From Pseudomonas phage Motto: a stretch of DNA of 49,960 bases. The stretch is from sequence record ON843697.1. One strand, 5' to 3'. Within the stretch, counting starts at the first letter, position 1; each line of letters starts with the position of its first letter. Under the pieces are notes generated by a model, which ran no database searches, had not been told where the DNA came from, and saw nothing but the letters and a program-made list of their open reading frames with translations. Shown here one piece after another: positions 5,279 through 47,515 of this stretch. The position numbers and the translations under genes were made by a program.

Positions 5279-5695
5279 ATGGATTACAGACCTATTAATT
5301 TTAGCCCTTGCCCTGGTAATTTGCAGGACTCTACAACTTACACCATTAACGGGACGTGCTACGCGGTTGATGATCTTATCCCTGGTGAAATAGTCAGCGT
5401 TATTGAAACCAATCAGAGATATAAAGGCATTGGCAAGTTTAACGGCAATCCGTTTGGTGTCGTATTTATGGATGGTTGCAATTATCAAGAATGTGATCCG
5501 ATTCCAGTTGTATCAAAAGGAAAGATTTTTGCGTTAACCAGATTGCAAGAACAACCTGAACCATTACAACAGGTGTATGTTGATGATGAAGGGCTTGCGT
5601 CACTGACTGGTGTCATTTTCGATCGATGTTTATTCACCGGAACGTTTTACAGGGTAAATTACGATCTCTCGATTGTTGGCATTCAGCTACCATAA
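5279..5695 (+). CDS. hypothetical structural-region protein (Cys-containing)
   Basis: 138 aa ORF with RBS ggggtgaattATG; no recognisable motif. Confidence 0.45.
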   Translation: MDYRPINFSPCPGNLQDSTTYTINGTCYAVDDLIPGEIVSVIETNQRYKGIGKFNGNPFGVVFMDGCNYQECDPIPVVSKGKIFALTRLQEQPEPLQQVYVDDEGLASLTGVIFDRCLFTGTFYRVNYDLSIVGIQLP

Positions 5696-5702
5696 AAAAG
5701 GC

Positions 5703-5730
5703 TTGAACGTTTAACAAAAAATGCTATATT
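5703..5730 (+). promoter_or_regulatory. sigma70-like promoter TTGAAC-16-TATATT upstream of major capsid gene; spacer contains an inverted copy of the cassette 18-mer (TTTAACAAAAAATGCTA)
   Basis: hexamers and spacing read directly. Confidence 0.45.
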
Positions 5731-5770: not shown

Positions 5771-6733
5771 ATGTCTAAAGAAACGAAATATGATGAGTTT
5801 GAAGCTGGTGTTGTTGGCTCTTACTTGCAGCAGGTAGGCACGTCAAAGAATGATGCCGTCACCGCTGGGATCTGGACTGCACAAGAACTGCACAAGATCA
5901 AATCTCAGGCTTACGAAAAAGAATATCCGGCTGGTTCCGCTCTCCGTGTATTCCCTGTAACCAACGAACTGAGCGACACCGATAAGACTTTCGAATACCA
6001 GATTTTCGATAAAGTCGGCCTAGCTCAGATTATCGCCGATTACACTGATGATCTGCCAACTGTAGACGCTCTGATGCGTTCCGAGTTTGGCAAAGTGTTC
6101 CGCCTGGGTAACGCCTTCCTGATCTCCATTGACGAAATCAAAGCAGGTCAGCGCACTGGTAAATCTCTGTCTACTCGCAAGGCTAACGCCGCGCAACTGG
6201 CACATGATCAGCTTGTTAACCGTCTGGTGTTTAAAGGCTCCAAGCCGCACAAAATTCCGAGCGTGTTCGAGCATCCGAATATCGCGAAGATTGTTTCCGC
6301 CAAATGGCTGGACGGCGAAACCAAAAAACCGGAAACCGCACAGGATGAACTTGAGAAAGCCATTGAACTGATCGAGACTCAGACCAACGGTATGCATCGC
6401 GCTACCCACATTCTGATCCCGCCGTCAATGCGTAAAGTTCTGATGGTTCGTATGCCTGAAACTACCGAAAGCTATCTTGACTATTTCATGAAGCAGAACG
6501 GCGGTATTACGATCGAATCCATTTCCGAGCTTGAAAACTATGACGGCGCAGGAAATAAAGCCGTACTGGTTTACGAAAAAGATCCGATGAACATGAGCAT
6601 TGAAATTCCAGAAGCGTTCAACATGCTTCCGGCTCAGGCTAAAGACCTGCATTTTAAAGTGCCTTGCACCTCCAAATGCACTGGCCTGACGATTTACCGC
6701 CCGTTAACCCTTGTGTTAATCACTGGCGTGTAA
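5771..6733 (+). CDS. major capsid protein
   Basis: 320 aa, strong RBS, flanked by promoter upstream and strong terminator downstream (high-expression signature); position in head module. Confidence 0.7.
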   Translation: MSKETKYDEFEAGVVGSYLQQVGTSKNDAVTAGIWTAQELHKIKSQAYEKEYPAGSALRVFPVTNELSDTDKTFEYQIFDKVGLAQIIADYTDDLPTVDALMRSEFGKVFRLGNAFLISIDEIKAGQRTGKSLSTRKANAAQLAHDQLVNRLVFKGSKPHKIPSVFEHPNIAKIVSAKWLDGETKKPETAQDELEKAIELIETQTNGMHRATHILIPPSMRKVLMVRMPETTESYLDYFMKQNGGITIESISELENYDGAGNKAVLVYEKDPMNMSIEIPEAFNMLPAQAKDLHFKVPCTSKCTGLTIYRPLTLVLITGV

Positions 6734-20439: not shown

Positions 20440-20483
20440 CATTATGCACATTGAGAACGTTTTTGTTTTAGCAATTCGTGCTG
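20440..20483 (-). promoter_or_regulatory. cassette copy (minus orientation, hairpin-less): CAGCACGAATTGCTAAAA-23 nt-CATAATG
   Basis: motif 20466-20483, box 20440-20447, drives the small peptide + lipoprotein. Confidence 0.5.
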
Positions 20484-20490
20484 TTGTTCT

Positions 20491-20955: not shown

Positions 20956-22011
20956 ATGAGCGAATTTAAGGTTTTCACCTTTGACCAACTGACTAACGAC
21001 GAGTATCACGATCCTAAAGGATGGGCTGCTGAATACGTAAGCGGTTCTAACCTGGCTGAAATCTTTGCAACTTGTCCGGCTGCATGGAAGTTTAAGAAGC
21101 GTGAAGAAACCAAAGCACTTGTTTTCGGTACGCAGTCACATACCAACTTTCAGAGCGCAGAGCTTTTCAATCAGGAATACCGTAGAGCAACCAATCCAGA
21201 CGATGTAAAAGATCTCATTACAAGCCAGGCGGCATTAGCAGCGAAATTGAAATCTCTTGGCCTGACTGGTACAAGCGGGAAAACCTATCCAGATCTTATC
21301 AAAATCATGGTTGATAGCGATTTAGACTTAAAGGTTTTATGGCTGATTGAAATGATCGAAGAATGCCAGGCCAGAGCAGACGGAGTTCAACTTGTTCCGG
21401 CGAAAGATTACGACGCTTGCGTTACCATGCGCCGCGTACTGGAAAACATACCGGAGCACAACGCCTGTATGAATAGCCCAACAGCACAACGCGAGCTTTC
21501 AATTTTCGGCACTATAGGCGGCGTGAAAGTCAAAGTTAGATTGGATCACGTTGATGTTTGCAGTAATGTTTCAGTAAACAAGAAAACTGGCGTTGATCCT
21601 GATGGGTTCCCGATTTATGAGACTGTTGTTTATGACGAAGCAGTAGTTATTACAGACTACAAGACAACAGCAAGCGCTAACCCGAAAGACTTCTCACGAT
21701 CTGCTTTCGATCATGGTTATTACTTGAAGATGGCTTTGCAGCACGATTTATTCAAACGTGCATACCCTGGAGAGAAGCGGCCTGTTATTGTTCGCCTTCT
21801 TGCTCAGGAAAAGAAAGAGCCTTTTTTGCCGATCGCATTCCGCCTTACAGATGAGCAATTGCAGATCGGGCGATTACAATACATGGGCGTAATTAACCAG
21901 TTTGCAGAATGCAAGGCTCTTGACGTTTGGCCTGGATATTCAAACAACGCCGTTGAGGTTGAGTTAGAAACGCCAGCTTGGATCAGAAAGCAGTATGAGG
22001 GTTTTCTGTAA
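20956..22011 (+). CDS. PD-(D/E)XK family recombination exonuclease (RecE/RecB-Cas4-like)
   Basis: start ATG 20956 with RBS agagga; motifs RLDHVDV ... VITDYKT (D...D-x-K); precedes Erf and SSB. Confidence 0.6.
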   Translation: MSEFKVFTFDQLTNDEYHDPKGWAAEYVSGSNLAEIFATCPAAWKFKKREETKALVFGTQSHTNFQSAELFNQEYRRATNPDDVKDLITSQAALAAKLKSLGLTGTSGKTYPDLIKIMVDSDLDLKVLWLIEMIEECQARADGVQLVPAKDYDACVTMRRVLENIPEHNACMNSPTAQRELSIFGTIGGVKVKVRLDHVDVCSNVSVNKKTGVDPDGFPIYETVVYDEAVVITDYKTTASANPKDFSRSAFDHGYYLKMALQHDLFKRAYPGEKRPVIVRLLAQEKKEPFLPIAFRLTDEQLQIGRLQYMGVINQFAECKALDVWPGYSNNAVEVELETPAWIRKQYEGFL

Positions 22012-22053
22012 TAGCACGAATTGCTAAAAATAATTTACGGTTGGCTGTATAAT
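22012..22053 (+). promoter_or_regulatory. cassette copy (+): TAGCACGAATTGCTAAAA-21 nt hairpin-TATAAT
   Basis: motif begins 1 nt after exonuclease stop; leader CAACCAATCAGAGAGGAAACAAT-ATG. Confidence 0.5.
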
Positions 22054-22082
22054 TGCAGTCAACCAATCAGAGAGGAAACAAT

Positions 22083-26858: not shown

Positions 26859-27290
26859 TTAATCGTGCTCTTTGCGCTTGTATTCCATCATGTGGCGCTT
26901 TGTGCATTTCGTTGATTTAGCTTTCCCGTTGCTGTCAAAATCCAGATCTGGACGGCAGAAAGCCGCAGTGAATCCGGCGAAGCCGTTCATCTTTCTATGA
27001 TACTGGACGCGCCGCGCTAGTTCAGGCGAAATCATGCCGCGCACTTTATAAGCGTTTCTTACCGTGACATATGGCACTTTAAGCGCTCTTGCCATCGCGC
27101 CAATTCCGCCGTAAAACTCCAATACTTGCTCAAACCTTGCCTTTAGTCCGGCCTTTACTTCTGGCTTTAATACCCAGCGTGGCGGCGCTTTGCGTGGTTT
27201 CTTATCCTTCCCGCGCCTGGTTCCGTTGTTGCCATTGATGCAGCGCTTATCAATAGCGCCCGTTGATTCTGCGATCCGTGGATTGCTCAT
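26859..27290 (-). CDS. HTH DNA-binding protein (Cro/YdaS-like helix-turn-helix), candidate early regulator
   Basis: GIGAMARALKVPYVTVRNAYK HTH; very basic N-terminus; first leftward gene at a divergent hub. Confidence 0.5.
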   Translation of the reverse strand: MSNPRIAESTGAIDKRCINGNNGTRRGKDKKPRKAPPRWVLKPEVKAGLKARFEQVLEFYGGIGAMARALKVPYVTVRNAYKVRGMISPELARRVQYHRKMNGFAGFTAAFCRPDLDFDSNGKAKSTKCTKRHMMEYKRKEHD

Positions 27291-27301
27291 TTCTCACCCC
27301 G

Positions 27302-27343
27302 TAGCACTTTTTGCTAAAACATTTCATCTTGTTTGTGTATGAT
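27302..27343 (+). promoter_or_regulatory. cassette copy (+, hairpin-less): TAGCACTTTTTGCTAAAA-21 nt-TGTGTATGAT
   Basis: in 86-bp divergent region between HTH gene and helicase. Confidence 0.5.
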
Positions 27344-29409: not shown

Positions 29410-29799
29410 ATGTATCATGAATTTTACGACAAGAAAGCAACAGATACCCGTTCAGAAGATGCACACCAGGTTGATTCTATAGCGTGGTTGCGTTACAAGT
29501 TTCCGACCTGGATCGTGTTCCACGTTAACAACGAAGGAAAGAAGGGGATCGGTCAATCGGTAAAGGATCAGATGAAGGGGCTTTTAAAGGGCGTCCCTGA
29601 CATCCTGATAATTCCTGACAGAAGTCAATGCAAGTATGGATTTATCGCGATCGAGTTGAAGCGAGCAAAGAAATCACTTTCTCACGTATCTGATGAGCAA
29701 AAGAAATTCCTTGAGCGCGTGAATGAAAATGGCGGCTTTGGTGCTCTATGTTATGGCGTCGAGCAGGTTAAAGTGGCAATTGAAGAAGCGTTAAAATAG
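29410..29799 (+). CDS. VRR-NUC domain nuclease
   Basis: IAIELKRAKKSLSHVSDEQKKFLERVNENGGFGALCYG matches VRR-NUC core. Confidence 0.55.
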   Translation: MYHEFYDKKATDTRSEDAHQVDSIAWLRYKFPTWIVFHVNNEGKKGIGQSVKDQMKGLLKGVPDILIIPDRSQCKYGFIAIELKRAKKSLSHVSDEQKKFLERVNENGGFGALCYGVEQVKVAIEEALK

Positions 29800-29840
29800 C
29801 ACGAATTGCTAAAACAGCCGCAAAGGAATGCGGCATAATG
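29797..29840 (+). promoter_or_regulatory. cassette copy (+): TAGCACGAATTGCTAAAA-23-ATAATG, hairpin ccgcaaaggaatgcgg
   Basis: TAG of motif is the stop of the VRR-NUC gene. Confidence 0.55.
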
Positions 29841-29871
29841 CACACAATGAAACAAACAGGAGACACAAAAG

Positions 29872-30615
29872 ATGGCTAAAGATATCACAGACAAAGCAAC
29901 TATTGACGGCATCGAGAAAGTTGATGAAATGGATATGCACGAATTGCAACACGGATCTTATTCGAGTATTGCATTGCGCTCAGGTGGTCATTATCAGCCA
30001 GTGAAGCCAAATGTATTCTACCAGGTAACGGGAAACCGATACGCCGGAAGCCATACGCCTGACGTTGTGCGCGATTTGTGGGAAACGCCAGACGAGATTG
30101 TAGATTATCTTTCCGATCGCTACGGTAAATATGATCTTGATGCAGCCGCAAGCGAGAACAATAAAAAATGCGATAAGTTTTACAGCAAAGAAACGAACTG
30201 CTTAAAACGTTGGTGGGGTAGCAATAAACACATTTGGCTGAATCCGCCATATTCAAACCCAGATCCGTTTGTGTTGAAAGCTATTGAACAGATGGAGCAT
30301 GGAAACCAGATTGATATTCTTCTTCCGGCTGATAACTCTACGGCGTGGTTTAGCGATGCAGTGAAACACGCGGCGGAAGTTATCTGGATTACTGGCGAGA
30401 CCTGGACGGATGAAGGCCGTGAATATTCCAGGACTGGACGTGTCGCGTTTATTTCTGGCCTGACTGGTGAACCAGTTAGCGGAAACAATAAAGGCAGTGT
30501 TATTTTCATCATGCGCCAGTTGAAGGAAGGAGAAAAACAACAAACTCACTACGTGCCAATTAGTGAAATTTGCCCTTCCGTTACCAACAAACGCAGCAAA
30601 GCGCGGAGTATTTAA
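29872..30615 (+). CDS. dam: DNA N6-adenine methyltransferase (phage Dam family)
   Basis: NPPY motif (WLNPPYSNP). Confidence 0.75.
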   Translation: MAKDITDKATIDGIEKVDEMDMHELQHGSYSSIALRSGGHYQPVKPNVFYQVTGNRYAGSHTPDVVRDLWETPDEIVDYLSDRYGKYDLDAAASENNKKCDKFYSKETNCLKRWWGSNKHIWLNPPYSNPDPFVLKAIEQMEHGNQIDILLPADNSTAWFSDAVKHAAEVIWITGETWTDEGREYSRTGRVAFISGLTGEPVSGNNKGSVIFIMRQLKEGEKQQTHYVPISEICPSVTNKRSKARSI

Positions 30616-30616
30616 G

Positions 30617-30862
30617 ATGGATGATAAAGTTTTACAGTTAAATGAAGCTGGGTTATGGCTCATGTATCGCGCAATCGTATGTGAAACGATAGTTCAGAAT
30701 GAGCTTGAAGAATACTTTGATCGCGATTTGTGGTCTTGGACTGAATGCCTGGATGCAAGTTTTGAAGAAACGGAAGAGCTTGAGTTTTCGGACTGGCGAC
30801 AAAAAATCGTTGATGATTTGGAAGAATACATTTCATGCGAGATTAAAAGAAAAATGCATTGA
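30617..30862 (+). CDS. hypothetical acidic protein (81 aa)
   Basis: ATG 30617 with RBS ggag; track start 30563 is an upstream extension inside dam. Confidence 0.45.
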   Translation: MDDKVLQLNEAGLWLMYRAIVCETIVQNELEEYFDRDLWSWTECLDASFEETEELEFSDWRQKIVDDLEEYISCEIKRKMH

Positions 30863-30906
30863 TAGCACTTTTTGTTAAAAGCCCCGCAAGGGGCTTTGTT
30901 ATTATG
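30863..30906 (+). promoter_or_regulatory. cassette copy (+): TAGCACTTTTTGTTAAAA-23-ATTATG, hairpin gccccgcaaggggc
   Basis: seen directly. Confidence 0.55.
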
Positions 30907-34110: not shown

Positions 34111-34154
34111 CATAGTAGCAAACCCGCCGAAGCGGGTTTTAACAAAAAGTGCTA
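34111..34154 (-). promoter_or_regulatory. cassette copy (-): TAGCACTTTTTGTTAAAA-23-ACTATG, hairpin cccgcttcggcggg
   Basis: TAG of motif is stop of gene 34152..34343. Confidence 0.55.
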
Positions 34155-34343
34155 TTTTCTTCTCAACTCAATAAGCCAACGAACAACAATCTTTCTCGTT
34201 TCGATCCAATCTTCATCCGTGAAATCATCGTATGTTGGCTCAAGGTTTTTATAGTCTGGCGGTTCGTACCGTTCAGGATTAGGAAGGCTGCTTAAAATCT
34301 TCTTCCTCTTTGCGCTTTTGCGTTTATCCCTACCTTTACCCAT
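34152..34343 (-). CDS. hypothetical basic protein (63 aa)
   Basis: RBS aggtga; Lys/Arg-rich N-terminus. Confidence 0.45.
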   Translation of the reverse strand: MGKGRDKRKSAKRKKILSSLPNPERYEPPDYKNLEPTYDDFTDEDWIETRKIVVRWLIELRRK

Positions 34344-36444: not shown

Positions 36445-36471
36445 ACTTCATGATCTCCTTTCTAATGCCGC

Positions 36472-36515
36472 CATTATAGCGGCATTATGTTACCCTCTTT
36501 TAGCAATTTGTGCTA
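36472..36515 (-). promoter_or_regulatory. cassette copy (-): TAGCACAAATTGCTAAAA-23-ATAATG with box in hairpin loop gccgcTATAATGgcggc
   Basis: seen directly. Confidence 0.5.
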
Positions 36516-36761
36516 TTCGATCCGCTCGACTCTCGCCAGTAAATGACCGTCAATGATGCTTTTCGCTTCAAGCGTTACAGGGTCAAAATCAAGCGATCGG
36601 TGAAATGATGTACCAATCAGGAATGATGAATGCTTATCCTTCACCAGATAAACCACGTCGCCAGGCTTCATTGTGCTTATATCGCTGAACGTGCAACGAA
36701 AAGCATTTTGCATCATGATCCGCGATTTATGCGGAGTGTAGTCTTTTTCAGGTAGATTCAT
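36513..36761 (-). CDS. hypothetical protein (82 aa)
   Basis: ORF. Confidence 0.4.
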   Translation of the reverse strand: MNLPEKDYTPHKSRIMMQNAFRCTFSDISTMKPGDVVYLVKDKHSSFLIGTSFHRSLDFDPVTLEAKSIIDGHLLARVERIE

Positions 36762-37195: not shown

Positions 37196-37378
37196 TTATT
37201 TAAATAATGCAACAACTCGACCGGATGGGGTATGAGCGGATCTCATTTCAACATCAAAATGATATTCACTTTCATATTCACCCTCAATGCAAATCATGCC
37301 GTTAGTGTATTCTATTAATCTATACTCTTTGCCAGGCGTAAACAAAAAGGTCTCACTTGATATGCATTCAAATTTCAT
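37196..37378 (-). CDS. hypothetical protein (60 aa)
   Basis: ATG 37378 after conserved leader; track extends to 37411 through cassette box. Confidence 0.4.
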   Translation of the reverse strand: MKFECISSETFLFTPGKEYRLIEYTNGMICIEGEYESEYHFDVEMRSAHTPSGRVVALFK

Positions 37379-37408
37379 TTTGTTTTCCTCAGTTCGTTTC
37401 GTTAAAAG

Positions 37409-37452
37409 CATTATGCCGGATACGTGATCCGGCGTTTTAACAAAAAGTGCTA
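37409..37452 (-). promoter_or_regulatory. cassette copy (-): TAGCACTTTTTGTTAAAA-23-ATAATG, hairpin gccggatcacgtatccggc
   Basis: TAG is stop of methyltransferase gene. Confidence 0.55.
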
Positions 37453-38145
37453 TTTCTGATTTGCAAGGCAGACAGCCAGGGCGAAGCCGCGAGGCGTGAG
37501 AGAACGGATCAACTTTGTGCGTTTAGACTTTCCGCCGAGCTTTAGCCAGCCAGGATTAGCATTTCCAGTTGGCAACACTGCTTTAGTGTCTGGCATTTCA
37601 AAGCCGTTACCCGTCCAGAGGCAGGTTTTCTTTGTGTAAGCGTCACGCGCCGGAATGATTTCAGGGAAATGAGGATGCTTATCATCTTCCGGCAGGTATC
37701 CACCAAACCCGCAAGGATGGAAAATATAATCAGGTTGCCGCCACATCGTCGATAACACGCTGATCGGATTTTCTACCATGTACGGAACACCAAACCATTC
37801 CCCCAACTCACTTGCAATCATTGCCGTTTCTGTTGCCTTAATCTGGAATTCAGGATCACGCTCACGCTTTGCCGCGAAGTGACGCGAGCCACTAACAGCC
37901 AGGTCAGTGCAAGGCGGAAACGCAATGATGAAATCAGGAATTCCCCACTCTTTACTGATGGCGCGAACGGTAAAACGCCCATCAATCCAGACATTCACAT
38001 ACTCTATATTGGGATGGGTAATGCGCACCTGGTGATAGTCTCCATGATCAGCATCATCGTAATTGAAACAAATCACTTTGTGACCACGTTCCGCCCACGG
38101 AAGCGCGTCATAACCGGAACCGCTAAAAAGTGAAAAAATCAACAT
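37450..38145 (-). CDS. short DNA (cytosine-5)-methyltransferase-like protein
   Basis: motif I LFSGSGYD, motif IV FPPCTD (PC), ENP(ISVL) motif; start ATG 38145 with RBS gagagg (track start 38205 is further upstream). Confidence 0.5.
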   Translation of the reverse strand: MLIFSLFSGSGYDALPWAERGHKVICFNYDDADHGDYHQVRITHPNIEYVNVWIDGRFTVRAISKEWGIPDFIIAFPPCTDLAVSGSRHFAAKRERDPEFQIKATETAMIASELGEWFGVPYMVENPISVLSTMWRQPDYIFHPCGFGGYLPEDDKHPHFPEIIPARDAYTKKTCLWTGNGFEMPDTKAVLPTGNANPGWLKLGGKSKRTKLIRSLTPRGFALAVCLANQK

Positions 38146-39115: not shown

Positions 39116-39158
39116 TATAATATCAGAATGGTTCAATGTGTTTTAGCAATTCGTGCTC
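39116..39158 (-). promoter_or_regulatory. cassette copy (-) located inside the 3' end of gene 39123..39311 (AGAGCACGAATTGCTAAAA ... ATTATA)
   Basis: motif encodes EHELLK of the upstream protein. Confidence 0.4.
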
Positions 39159-39311
39159 TTTTACCGCGATGAACGGATATCCGCTTAAATCGCCGTTGCG
39201 ATACCTGGCAGACCTGATCCAGTTCCCGCACTTGCTCAGGTATAACGCTTTATGATGGCGATGGTTGACGCGGTAGAATCGACCGCTTTTAACATTCTTG
39301 AAGTATGTCAT
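39123..39311 (-). CDS. hypothetical basic protein (62 aa)
   Basis: ORF. Confidence 0.4.
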   Translation of the reverse strand: MTYFKNVKSGRFYRVNHRHHKALYLSKCGNWIRSARYRNGDLSGYPFIAVKEHELLKHIEPF

Positions 39312-40029: not shown

Positions 40030-40073
40030 AACTATATCAATTCGGCGCGATCCGGTTTTAACAAAAAGTGCTA
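40030..40073 (-). promoter_or_regulatory. cassette copy (-): TAGCACTTTTTGTTAAAA-23-ATAGTT
   Basis: TAG is stop of gene 40071..40289. Confidence 0.55.
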
Positions 40074-40289
40074 TTCAACAATGACGCGGTAAGCGTGATC
40101 GCTCACATACTCCAGGCTGATAACGCCACTCTTGATTAGCTCGTCAATCGTGGCGCTATGCCAACCAGTTTGCACCACGTCAGGAAAGTGATAGCTCATG
40201 CAGTATCCATGATGTCGCTGGATCACGATTTTGTTTTTGCTCTTTTTGAAGCACTCAAGAAAGCGCCTTTCATCGCGGCTCATAACCAT
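40071..40289 (-). CDS. hypothetical protein (72 aa)
   Basis: ORF. Confidence 0.4.
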   Translation of the reverse strand: MVMSRDERRFLECFKKSKNKIVIQRHHGYCMSYHFPDVVQTGWHSATIDELIKSGVISLEYVSDHAYRVIVE

Positions 40290-40709: not shown

Positions 40710-40753
40710 ATTATGCCTGATCGGTCTGTTGCTGTTTTAGCAAAAAGTGCTAT
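40710..40753 (-). promoter_or_regulatory. cassette copy (-): TAGCACTTTTTGCTAAAA-23-ATAATG
   Basis: first element of leftward block. Confidence 0.55.
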
Positions 40754-41449: not shown

Positions 41450-41531
41450 GTTAGCAGAAAAGAAAAAACAATTGACACCCAGGATTGATGGCGCTATCGT
41501 ATGCGCAGACCAAACGAAAGGAGGAAAAACA

Positions 41532-42232: not shown

Positions 42233-42477
42233 TGAAAGTCAAGTGCATCAATAGCAGTTGCAATTGGTTCACCCAGGGGCGGGAATACTCCGCCCAACAA
42301 TATGACCACCTCACGATCGCAATCTTACAGGATGATATGTGCTCAGACCTGGGCGAAAACGATGATGCGTGGTATGCGACGAAAGCCAGGTTGCGCGGCG
42401 TAGAGGGTGATATGTACACGATACAGACGTTTAACCCGTTCCGATACCTTGCGGCGTTTACTCTGATTGGTGAATAG
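42232..42477 (+). CDS. hypothetical protein (81 aa)
   Basis: ORF. Confidence 0.4.
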   Translation: MKVKCINSSCNWFTQGREYSAQQYDHLTIAILQDDMCSDLGENDDAWYATKARLRGVEGDMYTIQTFNPFRYLAAFTLIGE

Positions 42478-42518
42478 CACTTTTTGTTAAAACTCATCCG
42501 GTGGATGCTGGCATAATG
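42475..42518 (+). promoter_or_regulatory. cassette copy (+): TAGCACTTTTTGTTAAAA-23-ATAATG
   Basis: TAG is stop of previous gene. Confidence 0.55.
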
Positions 42519-42547
42519 CATTCATCGGAACAAATGAGGAAAACAAA

Positions 42548-43548: not shown

Positions 43549-43549
43549 A

Positions 43550-43598
43550 TAGCACTAAAAGCTAAAACACGATCGCGGGGTTATCGTATGGTAGCCCC
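43550..43598 (+). promoter_or_regulatory. cassette copy (+), variant TAGCACTAAAAGCTAAAA with weak box
   Basis: seen directly. Confidence 0.4.
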
Positions 43599-43623
43599 AC
43601 ACAAACAACAGAAGGAAAGCTAA

Positions 43624-43842: not shown

Positions 43843-44084
43843 GTTGCTATATCATTCAAATCGCGCCAGTCGAGCAAATGCCAGTAGGCGCAACTCTGCA
43901 TTATATCCAGCGCAAAGATGGCGAATGGGACGAACTGAGATTCAAGCCGCGCCGCATTGAAGTACACGACGATGTTATTTGCCTGCTCTCCGGTTACGCT
44001 GGAGCATACAAGACAGGAAACAATTACGGCGCTGAAATAAACATAACTCGCGGTACAAAAATCAAATACAGCACGAATTGCTAA
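43839..44084 (+). CDS. hypothetical protein (81 aa)
   Basis: stop TAA lies inside cassette 18-mer. Confidence 0.4.
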   Translation: MSCYIIQIAPVEQMPVGATLHYIQRKDGEWDELRFKPRRIEVHDDVICLLSGYAGAYKTGNNYGAEINITRGTKIKYSTNC

Positions 44085-44112
44085 AACAGCCTGGAGCGGT
44101 TGCGATATAGTG
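44069..44112 (+). promoter_or_regulatory. cassette copy (+): CAGCACGAATTGCTAAAA-23-ATAGTG
   Basis: seen directly. Confidence 0.5.
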
Positions 44113-44143
44113 ACCGCACACAAACGAACAAAAGGAAATAAAA

Positions 44144-45287: not shown

Positions 45288-45436
45288 CAACATGGTTATT
45301 GATCGCAATTAGCTATTATGGCGGAATGCAGCCTGTTGAATTTACAAGCCATAAGGCTTGTATTGAGGCCAGGGAAACAGTTAAAAAACACACCCCTGTG
45401 GGTTGGGCTAATACTTACGTTTGCGTCAAGAAATAG
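45284..45436 (+). CDS. small protein (50 aa)
   Basis: not in track; ATGA overlap; stop is TAG of next cassette. Confidence 0.3.
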   Translation: MTTWLLIAISYYGGMQPVEFTSHKACIEARETVKKHTPVGWANTYVCVKK

Positions 45437-45477
45437 CACGAATTGCTAAAAGCGGGGCGCAATACCCCGCTATAATG
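45434..45477 (+). promoter_or_regulatory. cassette copy (+): TAGCACGAATTGCTAAAA-23-ATAATG, hairpin gcggggcgcaataccccgc
   Basis: seen directly. Confidence 0.55.
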
Positions 45478-45987: not shown

Positions 45988-46564
45988 AATCATTCTACTC
46001 AACGCCCCGAAAGGGGCAGGAAAGGACACTGTAGCAAACGCAATTTGTGAGCGCCTGGATTACCCGCGCAAAGCAAGCTTTAAAGCGCCAATGTTTCAGA
46101 TCGCGCTTGCCATCCTGGGGCAACATAATTATTGCCGATTCCTTGACGTTTACGGCGACAGAGAGCAGAAGGAAAAAGCACATGATTTCCTGATGGGTAT
46201 GACTTGCCGCCAATTCATGATCTGGATTAGCGAAGAAGTGATTAAACCGAAGTTTGGTGAAAAGTATTTCGGCAAACGCCTGTCAGACCTGGCCGCTAAT
46301 TCTGATTATCCTGTTATCGTCTCAGATTGCGGATTTGAGCAAGAAGTGATTGCGCTGATTGAGGGCGGTCATGAAGTGAAGTTGGTTCGTATGCATCGCC
46401 AGGGATTCGAGTTTGACGAAACTGACAGCCGAAACTACGTTTACTTGCCAGCGTGCTACTACGGCGAAAACGGATATGAAGAAATCGACGTTGATTTGTT
46501 CGATGGCGATCCGGTATATACCGCTTATGAACTTATTCACAAGTTCAAACTTAAACAGCACTAA
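45980..46564 (+). CDS. deoxynucleoside monophosphate kinase-like P-loop kinase (T4 gp1-like)
   Basis: N-terminus MAKIILLNAPKGAGKDTVANAI closely resembles T4 dNMP kinase MKLIFLSGVKRSGKDTTADFI. Confidence 0.55.
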   Translation: MAKIILLNAPKGAGKDTVANAICERLDYPRKASFKAPMFQIALAILGQHNYCRFLDVYGDREQKEKAHDFLMGMTCRQFMIWISEEVIKPKFGEKYFGKRLSDLAANSDYPVIVSDCGFEQEVIALIEGGHEVKLVRMHRQGFEFDETDSRNYVYLPACYYGENGYEEIDVDLFDGDPVYTAYELIHKFKLKQH

Positions 46565-46599
46565 TTGCTAAAGCTTGCTAAGAGGCATTTGATATAGTG
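46556..46599 (+). promoter_or_regulatory. cassette copy (+): CAGCACTAATTGCTAAAG-23-ATAGTG
   Basis: kinase stop TAA lies inside motif. Confidence 0.45.
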
Positions 46600-46632
46600 C
46601 CTCTTGTCGAGTGAACCAATCAGGAGAATCAA

Positions 46633-46994: not shown

Positions 46995-47443
46995 TGAAAA
47001 TTTTAATGGTTGCAAAGAAAACTGTTGATGGAATTATCACAGAGGGCAAGCAATACGCAGTTGAGGATTTCACCGATTCTCTTTACATGGTGAAAGGCGA
47101 CAATGGAAAGTATGCAATTGTAAAGGAACACTTTGAAAGTCCTTTCTTAAATAGCGTCAAGCAGATCGCAAATAAGGCTGATGAGCTTGCAAAGAAAGAG
47201 CGTGAGCGTGTACGCGATAACGTATTAAACGCGCCTTTTGTTGGTGGGGCTGGATGGCGCATTCATCGTGAAGGTGATGTTACATTCGCTGATATCAAGA
47301 GCAACAATTTCCAACCTAATGCATACTTTGATACCCTTGATGAATTGCGCAAGATTCTACGTGTGCCAGAGGGTGATAACATTCTGACTCATGCCAGGAT
47401 GGTTAGAGAATTGGCTGACGTTCTGATCAAATTGCAGAAATAG
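46994..47443 (+). CDS. hypothetical protein (149 aa)
   Basis: ATG 46994 in TAATG overlap; track start 46988 is TTG. Confidence 0.45.
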   Translation: MKILMVAKKTVDGIITEGKQYAVEDFTDSLYMVKGDNGKYAIVKEHFESPFLNSVKQIANKADELAKKERERVRDNVLNAPFVGGAGWRIHREGDVTFADIKSNNFQPNAYFDTLDELRKILRVPEGDNILTHARMVRELADVLIKLQK

Positions 47444-47484
47444 CACTTTTTGTTAAAAGCCGGAATTCGTTTCCGGCTATTATC
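47441..47484 (+). promoter_or_regulatory. cassette copy (+): TAGCACTTTTTGTTAAAA-23-ATTATC, hairpin gccggaattcgtttccggc
   Basis: TAG is stop of previous gene. Confidence 0.55.
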
Positions 47485-47515
47485 TTCTCAACGAAACAAC
47501 ACAGAGGAATAAAAA

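Follow-up and report, generated by a model that had tools for sequence, protein, structure and literature searches.

Predicted promoter cassettes with nested hairpins in the genome of the T1-like Pseudomonas phage Motto

Cassettes and hairpins in the Motto genome

The window analysed here, the whole 49,960-base stretch from Pseudomonas phage Motto (sequence record ON843697.1), makes up practically the entire genome of a siphophage of the T1-like group (Drexlerviridae). It aligns collinearly with Vibrio phage Vc1 (~82% identity over a 6-kb stretch) and is also related to phages TLS and T1. Seventeen full promoter cassettes lie ahead of many of its early and middle genes, and one further, degenerate copy is found at 5708-5727 (-). 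Each cassette consists, in this order, of the repeat (a)ATAGCACnnnTTGYTAAAA, ~18-20 variable bases, a -10-like hexamer (C/TATAAT, TATAGT, TATTAT, and others), and a conserved leader ..CAACGAAACGAAC..GAGGA..ATG. The repeat is referred to below as the marbox, from its resemblance to the sites of the host activators MarA/SoxS/Rob. We found that most cassettes hold a hairpin whose pairing is under selection on the sense strand, and we propose that this hairpin is nested in a marbox-type promoter and would serve the 3' end of the upstream mRNA.

Folding revealed a stable hairpin in 12 of the 17 window cassettes (z <= -2.3); the z-scores and ranks of the exemplar stems refer to 200 dinucleotide shuffles. 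The hairpins fall into two classes. Class A hairpins lie within the spacer only, while class B hairpins have the -10 hexamer in the loop, with the 5' arm in the spacer and the discriminator as the 3' arm. The cassettes are as follows (energies in kcal/mol).

29817-29834 (+): class A hairpin, -11.0, z -3.4; marbox 29796-29815; -10 CATAAT 29834-29839
30878-30897 (+): class A hairpin, terminator-like, followed by TTTGTTATTAT, -14.1; marbox 30862-30881; -10 TATTAT 30900-30905; called by a terminator scan
34120-34139 (-): class A hairpin, terminator-like, followed by TTTGC, -12.9; marbox 34136-34155; -10 TACTAT 34112-34117
37415-37433 (-): class A hairpin, -11.7; marbox 37434-37453; -10 CATAAT 37410-37415
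45451-45471 (+): class A hairpin, -13.4, z -2.6; marbox 45433-45452; -10 TATAAT 45471-45476
47458-47478 (+): class A hairpin, -13.8, z -3.9; marbox 47440-47459; -10 TATTAT 47478-47483
22039-22064 (+): class B hairpin, -17.3, z -6.3; marbox 22011-22030; -10 TATAAT 22048-22053 at the apex of the stem-loop
36463-36487 (-): class B hairpin, -15.4, z -5.1; marbox 36497-36516; -10 TATAAT 36473-36478 in the loop; two compensatory changes relative to Vc1
42497-42529 (+): class B hairpin, -18.5, z -4.8; marbox 42474-42493; -10 CATAAT 42512-42517 in the loop; two compensatory pair changes relative to Vc1
43575-43600 (+): class B hairpin, -15.0, around -10 TATGGT 43587-43592; marbox 43549-43568
44096-44117 (+): class B hairpin, -13.2, around -10 TATAGT 44106-44111; marbox 44068-44087
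46573-46612 (+): class B hairpin of 16 bp, -20.9, z -6.1, around -10 TATAGT 46593-46598; marbox 46555-46574
20441-20484 (-): cassette without hairpin, z +0.15; opens a leftward unit, with no co-directional gene upstream
27301-27343 (+): cassette without hairpin, z +0.6; marbox 27301-27320; -10 TATGAT 27338-27343; block-initial, divergent from a Cro-like regulator gene at 26859-27290 (-)
39117-39159 (-): cassette without hairpin, z +0.2; 21-nucleotide (nt) spacer, TGn before the -10, long leader
40031-40074 (-): cassette without hairpin, z +0.5; a co-directional upstream open reading frame (ORF) terminates in its marbox, so that the cassette departs from the rule described below
40710-40753 (-): cassette with a weak fold only, -6.8, z -1.0; opens the leftward early block

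In the cassette of hairpin 29817-29834, the predicted transcription start lies near 29846 and the start codon at 29872 belongs to a Dam methylase gene, while the upstream ORF (29410-29799) stops at a TAG inside the marbox. The orthogroup of hairpin 36463-36487 (-) contains at least six different arm sequences.

The six stems given as exemplars in the initial annotation, all of class A, were recovered with energies of -11 to -14 kcal/mol and z-scores of -2.3 to -3.9 (0-4 of 200 shuffles as good). The three copies that it called stemless (20466/20483-, 27302+, and 39141/39158-) were likewise without structure, with z about 0; beyond these three, cassette 40073- has no stable hairpin and cassette 40752- only a weak one. 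Its placement of all hairpins in a single 23-nt window describes the six class A stems but leaves out six class B hairpins (-13 to -21 kcal/mol) that straddle the -10. Only the spacer had been folded at that stage, and class B was seen once the fold window was extended through the -10 hexamer.

We then considered cassettes gathered from Vc1, TLS, T1, and IMG/VR contigs, which comprised 766 unique cassettes in 255 orthogroups. Class A hairpins were found in 27%, class B hairpins in 47%, and no hairpin in 26%, i.e., 74% had a stable hairpin and class B was the commoner class across the family. In a subset of 248 cassettes, 68% of the 44-nt regions folded at <= -11 kcal/mol compared with 3-4% of the shuffles; random 44-mers drawn from the genomes of four T1-like phages did so in 10% of cases. 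Class A stems span positions ~-29 to -12 and class B stems ~-24 to -1, with 3' ends peaking sharply at -1; measured from the -10, the registers lie more than 10 bp apart. Most stems have 6-12 bp with loops of 3-7 nt, and about a quarter of 114 class B stems reach 14-17 bp. An extended -10 (TGn) occurs in 61% of class B, 45% of hairpin-less, and 21% of class A cassettes, and the main class B register shows G at -14 without exception (alignment A1, column 36). In class A, the first base of the -10 hexamer (C/T) forms a pair with the initial base of the stem (G-C 25, A-U 9, G-U 4; alignment A2, columns 21/38), which is probably why the box often reads CATAAT rather than TATAAT. An Rfam search matched the hairpins to no family.

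Selection on pairing in the sense strand

The pairing of the two arms is under selection. In box-anchored alignments of both registers, the covariation score was 0.58, compared with 0.22-0.25 in shuffles, none of 500 of which reached the observed value, and the scores were far above those of versions with a shifted partner column. Between the window and Vc1, the 29817 stem shows a compensatory change from G-C to C-G (CCGCA/TGCGG versus CCCCA/TGGGG), and further double changes are seen in GGATGC/GCATTC versus GGGTGT/ACACCC and in AATGCCGC/GCGGCATT versus GATGCCGT/AGCGGCATC. Among 82 disjoint orthologous pairs of cassettes, both members had changed in 89 stem pairs where 56.5 were expected, and pairing is retained in 81 of these (91%). 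Chimeric stems made from swapped orthologue arms lose ~4 kcal/mol. Furthermore, orthogroups often rebuild the stem from a different sequence or shift between registers A and B.

Which strand folds was examined with helices found by Watson-Crick pairs only, a strand-symmetric criterion, counting isolated mismatches with at least three pairs on each side. G·T mismatches outnumbered A·C mismatches by 36 to 3 (p = 4e-8), and by 26 to 3 after de-duplication by orthogroup. This excess means that the sense strand folds, because a cruciform gives no bias and an antisense RNA gives the reverse. Selection thus acts on a fold of the sense single strand, and the folded molecule is probably RNA. Two candidates were rejected by the same test, namely a cruciform and an antisense terminator formed by the stem and TTTTA on the opposite strand; for the latter, class B stems also do not adjoin TAAAA. 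The initial annotation had read the conserved structure with its changing sequence as a sign of selection on single-stranded nucleic acid. This reading is borne out, both by the folding and covariation analysis of alignments anchored on the box and by the maintenance of the stems in homologous phages.

The presence of the hairpin follows the upstream gene. It was found in 81% of cassettes with a co-directional upstream ORF and in 4 of 31 divergent, block-initial cassettes; counted by orthogroup, the values were 166 of 209 and 1 of 7, respectively. The three block-initial cassettes of the window (27302+, 20483-, and 40752-) have no stable hairpin. The upstream ORF usually terminates within the box, at the TAG of ATAGCAC or the TAA of TAAAA (box-derived stops lie, e.g., at 29797-29799, 30860-30862, and 40071-40073). 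Family-wide, the TAG supplies the stop in about half of the cases and the TAA in ~10%, and a TGA or TAA often stands just before the box, so that stops are provided in all three frames. Where the upstream gene stops inside the marbox, there is no other place for its hairpin. Where the stop is the TAA at offset 13, we found 2 class A and 51 class B hairpins. A class A stem would start ~5 nt after this stop, and its near-absence is expected if the terminating ribosome must clear the stem. In addition, where a cassette is hairpin-less and its upstream ORF stops 18 nt or more ahead of the box, the intervening gap has a hairpin in 55-59% of cases.

Promoter type and constant spacing

The arrangement of the cassette points to a class II MarA/SoxS/Rob (marbox) promoter used by sigma-70. 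In the marbox, an asymmetric 20-bp element reading ATAGCACnnWTTGYTAAAAc, GCAC occupies -47 to -44 and TAAA -36 to -33. An 18-bp gap separates it from the -10 hexamer. Downstream of the hexamer come a conserved C-A at -1/+1, consistent with transcription starting 7 nt past the hexamer, and an A-rich leader that contains GAGGA. All boxes point toward the downstream gene. The constant spacing described in the initial annotation is real and extends to the whole family, with 22 nt from TTGYTA to the hexamer in ~88% of cassettes and 21-23 nt in the remainder.

The classical marbox consensus, AYnGCACnnWnnRYYAAAYn, was searched for in its 18-mer form (AYnGCACnnWnnRYYAAA) and gave 15 matches in the window versus 0.11 expected. 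Family-wide, 231 of 301 unique boxes match the marbox pattern perfectly. Positions that were left free in the box search still obey the consensus (A1 in 92%, W10 in 98%, Y14 in 93%); position 19 is A and not Y, as it also is in the box of micF. With the published marbox pattern gcannwwntgnnaaa (PMC12052159), there were 17 perfect matches in the window versus 1.45 expected, of which 16 belong to cassettes and one is the degenerate copy at 5708-5727; the pattern misses cassette 43550.

The closest likeness is to the micF promoter, which reads on the E. coli chromosome as ACAGCACTGAATGTCAAAAC, 18 nt, TAGAAT, 7 nt, and the start site. A phage cassette reading ATAGCACGAATTGCTAAAAC, 18 nt, and CATAAT has the orientation and the 18-bp gap of micF and shares 14 of 20 bases with its box. 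As in class II MarA/SoxS/Rob (RamA) promoters such as micF, a 20-bp asymmetric forward box with GCAC and YAAA, elements spaced by about one helical turn, overlaps the -35 region and stands 18 bp from the -10; by this likeness of sequence and geometry, the phage box is a predicted activator site. However, the phage carries ~17 copies, repeated as cassettes with a common leader, in a 50-kb virulent genome, and its 18-bp gap usually encodes an RNA hairpin, whereas that of micF does not. A cryo-electron microscopy complex showed that Rob contacts -47G and -45A and displaces sigma region 4 from the -35 element (PMC9178005), and the soxbox has been described as centred at -41.5 (PMC9638938). The cassettes have G at -47 and A at -45, coinciding with the Rob contact positions.

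At a class II marbox promoter the activator takes over the -35 contact, and the stretch from ~-32 to -13 then requires a fixed length but can have any sequence. We therefore suggest that the geometry of such a promoter, and not the hairpin, sets the window of constant spacing and free sequence. A gap of fixed length and free sequence would, in turn, be able to hold an RNA-coding palindrome.

Pfam searches of 18 early ORFs and a tblastn search with MarA gave no AraC/MarA-like protein among the window proteins examined, and a phage-encoded MarA-like activator was rejected on this basis. The annotated phage regulator is Cro/YdaS-like (PF14549 and PF15943 in homologues). A tentative extension of our proposal, to which we give somewhat less than even odds, is that T1-like phages have wired nearly all of their early genes (~17-18 promoters per genome) to the host stress- and bile-sensing activators MarA/SoxS/Rob/RamA via micF-type promoters, the gap doubling as an RNA hairpin that closes the preceding transcript. 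If true, early phage expression would read the stress state of the host, and each gene would be an insulated unit with only ~75 nt between it and its neighbour.

Other promoter types were also considered. TTGYTA was rejected as a -35 hexamer because it lies 22 bp from the -10 (a 21-23 bp spacer across the family), and a promoter scan with 16-18 bp spacing recovered no cassette. A sigma-54 promoter (TGGCAC-N5-TTGC, compared with TAGCAC-N3-TTGC) was rejected as well, the spacing being 2 bp short and the GG absent. Between 29000 and 48000, canonical sigma-70-like sites (16-18 bp spacing) fell below the shuffled level, with 25 versus 36.7 ± 6.4. A good canonical match, TTGACA-17-TATCGT at 41472-41500, heads the rightward early block.

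The box is the same element as a 21-nt direct repeat of phage TLS, aaATAGCACnnnTTGnTAAAA, reported in 18 intergenic copies that are oriented with transcription and lie ~76 nt before start codons (PMC11447400). The 2024 reannotation of TLS listed only three sigma-70-like promoters beside the 18 unexplained repeats, and left open whether these act as stoperator, enhancer site, or UP element; it mentions no fixed -10, marbox match, or hairpin, the words 'hairpin' and 'stem' occurring 0 times (PMC11447400). Stoperators, as in mycobacteriophage L5, are numerous oriented repressor sites within transcription units at which elongation is blocked. The orientation bias and copy number of the box fit this description; the rigid 18-bp distance to the -10 (A-11, T-7) and the start-site C-A are requirements of a promoter and not of a stoperator. 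Our literature searches (T1-like transcriptomes; marbox and phage; MarA/SoxS and phage T1) returned nothing relevant, including no paper describing the marbox match or the nested hairpins of T1-like cassettes, and a full-text search with the motif sequence returned only noise. Known before were the TLS repeat and a few of the stems, listed as terminators in the T1 GenBank record and the TLS table. It is the arrangement that is new, its parts being known, and the link to the marbox gives it wider interest.

Role of the hairpin and alternative explanations

We propose that the free stretch of a micF-like promoter has taken up an inverted repeat, either in the spacer alone (~-29 to -12) or straddling the -10 and ending at -1, and that the folded strand would be RNA read through from the upstream gene. 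Such read-in RNA is the obvious candidate because a transcript that the cassette itself initiates is missing the 5' arm and so cannot fold in this way. The hairpin may define or protect the 3' end of the upstream transcript, serving as an exonuclease barrier after processing or read-through, and the minority with a U-tract may be true intrinsic terminators. Each early gene would thereby form a compact, insulated unit. For hairpins without a U-tract, a 3'-end barrier or processing mark appears to be the most economical role. Taken as a whole, the explanation of a micF-like marbox promoter with a nested sense-strand hairpin serving the 3' end of the upstream mRNA has, in our estimate, a probability of roughly 0.58.

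Several points weigh against this explanation. The G·T excess would also fit a hairpin formed by the non-template strand of the DNA. Orthologous cassettes cannot be treated as independent observations, and the counts at group level are smaller, with 7 divergent orthogroups. About 19% of the cassettes with co-directional upstream genes are hairpin-less (cassette 40073- is one such case from the window), and hairpins are present in a few divergent cassettes (T1 36445). The phage Cro-like regulator could instead use the partly palindromic TAGCA-N5-TGCTA of the putative marbox. It should also be noted that the classes were assigned by RNA folding, which biases the percentage of paired positions; the strand test, the shuffle controls, and the variety of pair types are free of this bias. 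Finally, the searchable literature yielded no data on transcript ends, start sites, or half-lives for T1-like phages, and we therefore infer the RNA role of the hairpin.

The initial annotation had suggested that some of the stems double as intrinsic terminators for the upstream gene, forming terminator-promoter junctions. For 30878-30897 and 34120-34139, followed by TTTGT and TTTGC, respectively, this is convincing, and they are the only two in the window that look like intrinsic terminators. A general rule, in which all stems are rho-independent terminators and the T/A-rich -10 box serves as the U-tract, is unlikely. It would draw on the terminator scan that called 30878-30897, on the TLS terminators T62, directly after DR12, and T57 (PMC11447400), on the T1 GenBank record, which labels several of these stems terminators, and on the avoidance of stems near the stop codon, as a co-transcriptional terminator would require. 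A TLS/T1 stem between the regulator and primase genes is indeed a class B hairpin with a full T-tract and is annotated as a terminator. The cassettes have the GC-rich stem-loop of an intrinsic terminator, but the U-tract is mostly missing. At least five T in the next 8 nt follow only 32 of 566 hairpins (~6%; 10 of 255 orthogroups), for which reason most hairpins are not canonical terminators. In class B, the majority, 73% have 0-1 T in the next 8 nt and the A-rich leader follows; T in the discriminator is not enriched either, with 1.54 after class A stems versus 1.65 in hairpin-less cassettes (p = 0.34). The hairpins share with intrinsic terminators and with 3' stabilisers (REP-type hairpins, and ends trimmed to a stem after Rho) a GC-rich sense-RNA stem of 6-12 bp after the stop codon and covariation; they differ in that ~94% are without a U-tract and in being nested in or around the core elements of the next promoter. 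It is about as improbable that the hairpin serves the downstream cistron on read-through RNA, either as a 5' stem-loop left by RNase E cutting of the U-rich marbox RNA or as an insulator shielding the GAGGA ribosome site from the GC-rich discriminator. The sense-strand structure would suit this role, as would its position just upstream of a conserved, unstructured A-rich leader and the ending of class B exactly at -1, which leaves the leader free; a T-type marbox RNA, UUUUUGUUAAAA, also resembles an RNase E target. However, class A stems begin at least 4-6 nt after any likely RNase E cut, which is far for 5'-end protection, and hairpins that occupy the gap upstream of the marbox where there is room are a better fit to a role at the upstream 3' end.

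Promoter roles at the DNA level are far less probable than either of these. Inverted repeats at fixed promoter positions could act as a supercoiling-tuned cruciform or extruded hairpin, or as a hairpin promoter of the phage N4 virion-RNA-polymerase type, and block-first promoters without hairpins could reflect different regulation. The N4 early promoter hairpins are centred near -12, as are the class B repeats, and are DNA structures read by a virion RNA polymerase of ~3,500 amino acids. No ORF near this size is present in the window, where the longest ORFs have 1194 and 978 amino acids, so the phage differs from N4 in having no such polymerase; it also differs in its variable register and in a strand asymmetry that speaks against a cruciform extruded from the duplex. 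Indeed, a two-stranded cruciform could not give the observed G·T to A·C ratio, since each G·T of one strand would be an A·C on the other. Registers more than 10 bp apart, orthologues that switch between them, and the 26% of otherwise identical cassettes that have no hairpin also argue against a DNA role. Processing by RNase III between cistrons, as in the early region of T7, is just as remote. As in T7, hairpins stand between early cistrons of a lytic phage and processing would leave a stable 3' stem upstream, and a minority of class B stems are long (14-17 bp; 16 bp for 46573-46612 in the window). Stems of 6-12 bp, however, are too short for RNase III, which acts on about two helical turns, and most stems are of this size. 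The phage stems are much shorter than the T7 sites, lack their internal-loop architecture, had no Rfam match, and overlap a host-polymerase promoter.

With the repeat, the fixed -10, and the hairpin regarded as one unit, early transcription in T1-like phages, which the TLS reannotation left open, becomes testable. The cassettes are also an example of signal packing, in which a stop codon, an activator site, an RNA stem, and a -10 element would share ~50 bp. The annotation of Drexlerviridae, phages that are widely used in phage therapy collections, is affected, since promoter and terminator predictors miss or mislabel the cassette sites.

Mechanical ORF lists contain false starts (e.g., 37196-37411, -) because an ATG lies inside the cATAATg box (37409-37411, -); the real start of such genes follows the GAGGA ~30 nt downstream of this box. 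After the predicted start site, most cassettes have a conserved A-rich leader, (c)AACGAAACGAAC..GAGGA (e.g., 29846-29871, 37378-37403 (-), and 47490-47515), which might be a shared translation-enhancing or RNA-processing element.

The degenerate marbox-like copy at 5708-5727 (-), ATATAGCATTTTTTGTTAAAC, is in antisense orientation within the late capsid region, flanked by 5279-5695 and 5771-6733, and has no proper -10. It is kept at the same place in Vc1, TLS (DR7), and T1.

At the helicase cassette, the -10 (TATGAT, 27338-27343, +) overlaps by 5 nt an opposing -10 (TATCAT, 27344-27339, -). The latter belongs to a canonical promoter with a -35 TTACTA at 27366-27361, which drives the Cro-like regulator gene (start codon at 27290) and corresponds to TLS P57. 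The marbox 27301-27320 sits in the leader of the regulator, and, given the overlapping -10 elements, the two divergent promoters look mutually exclusive.

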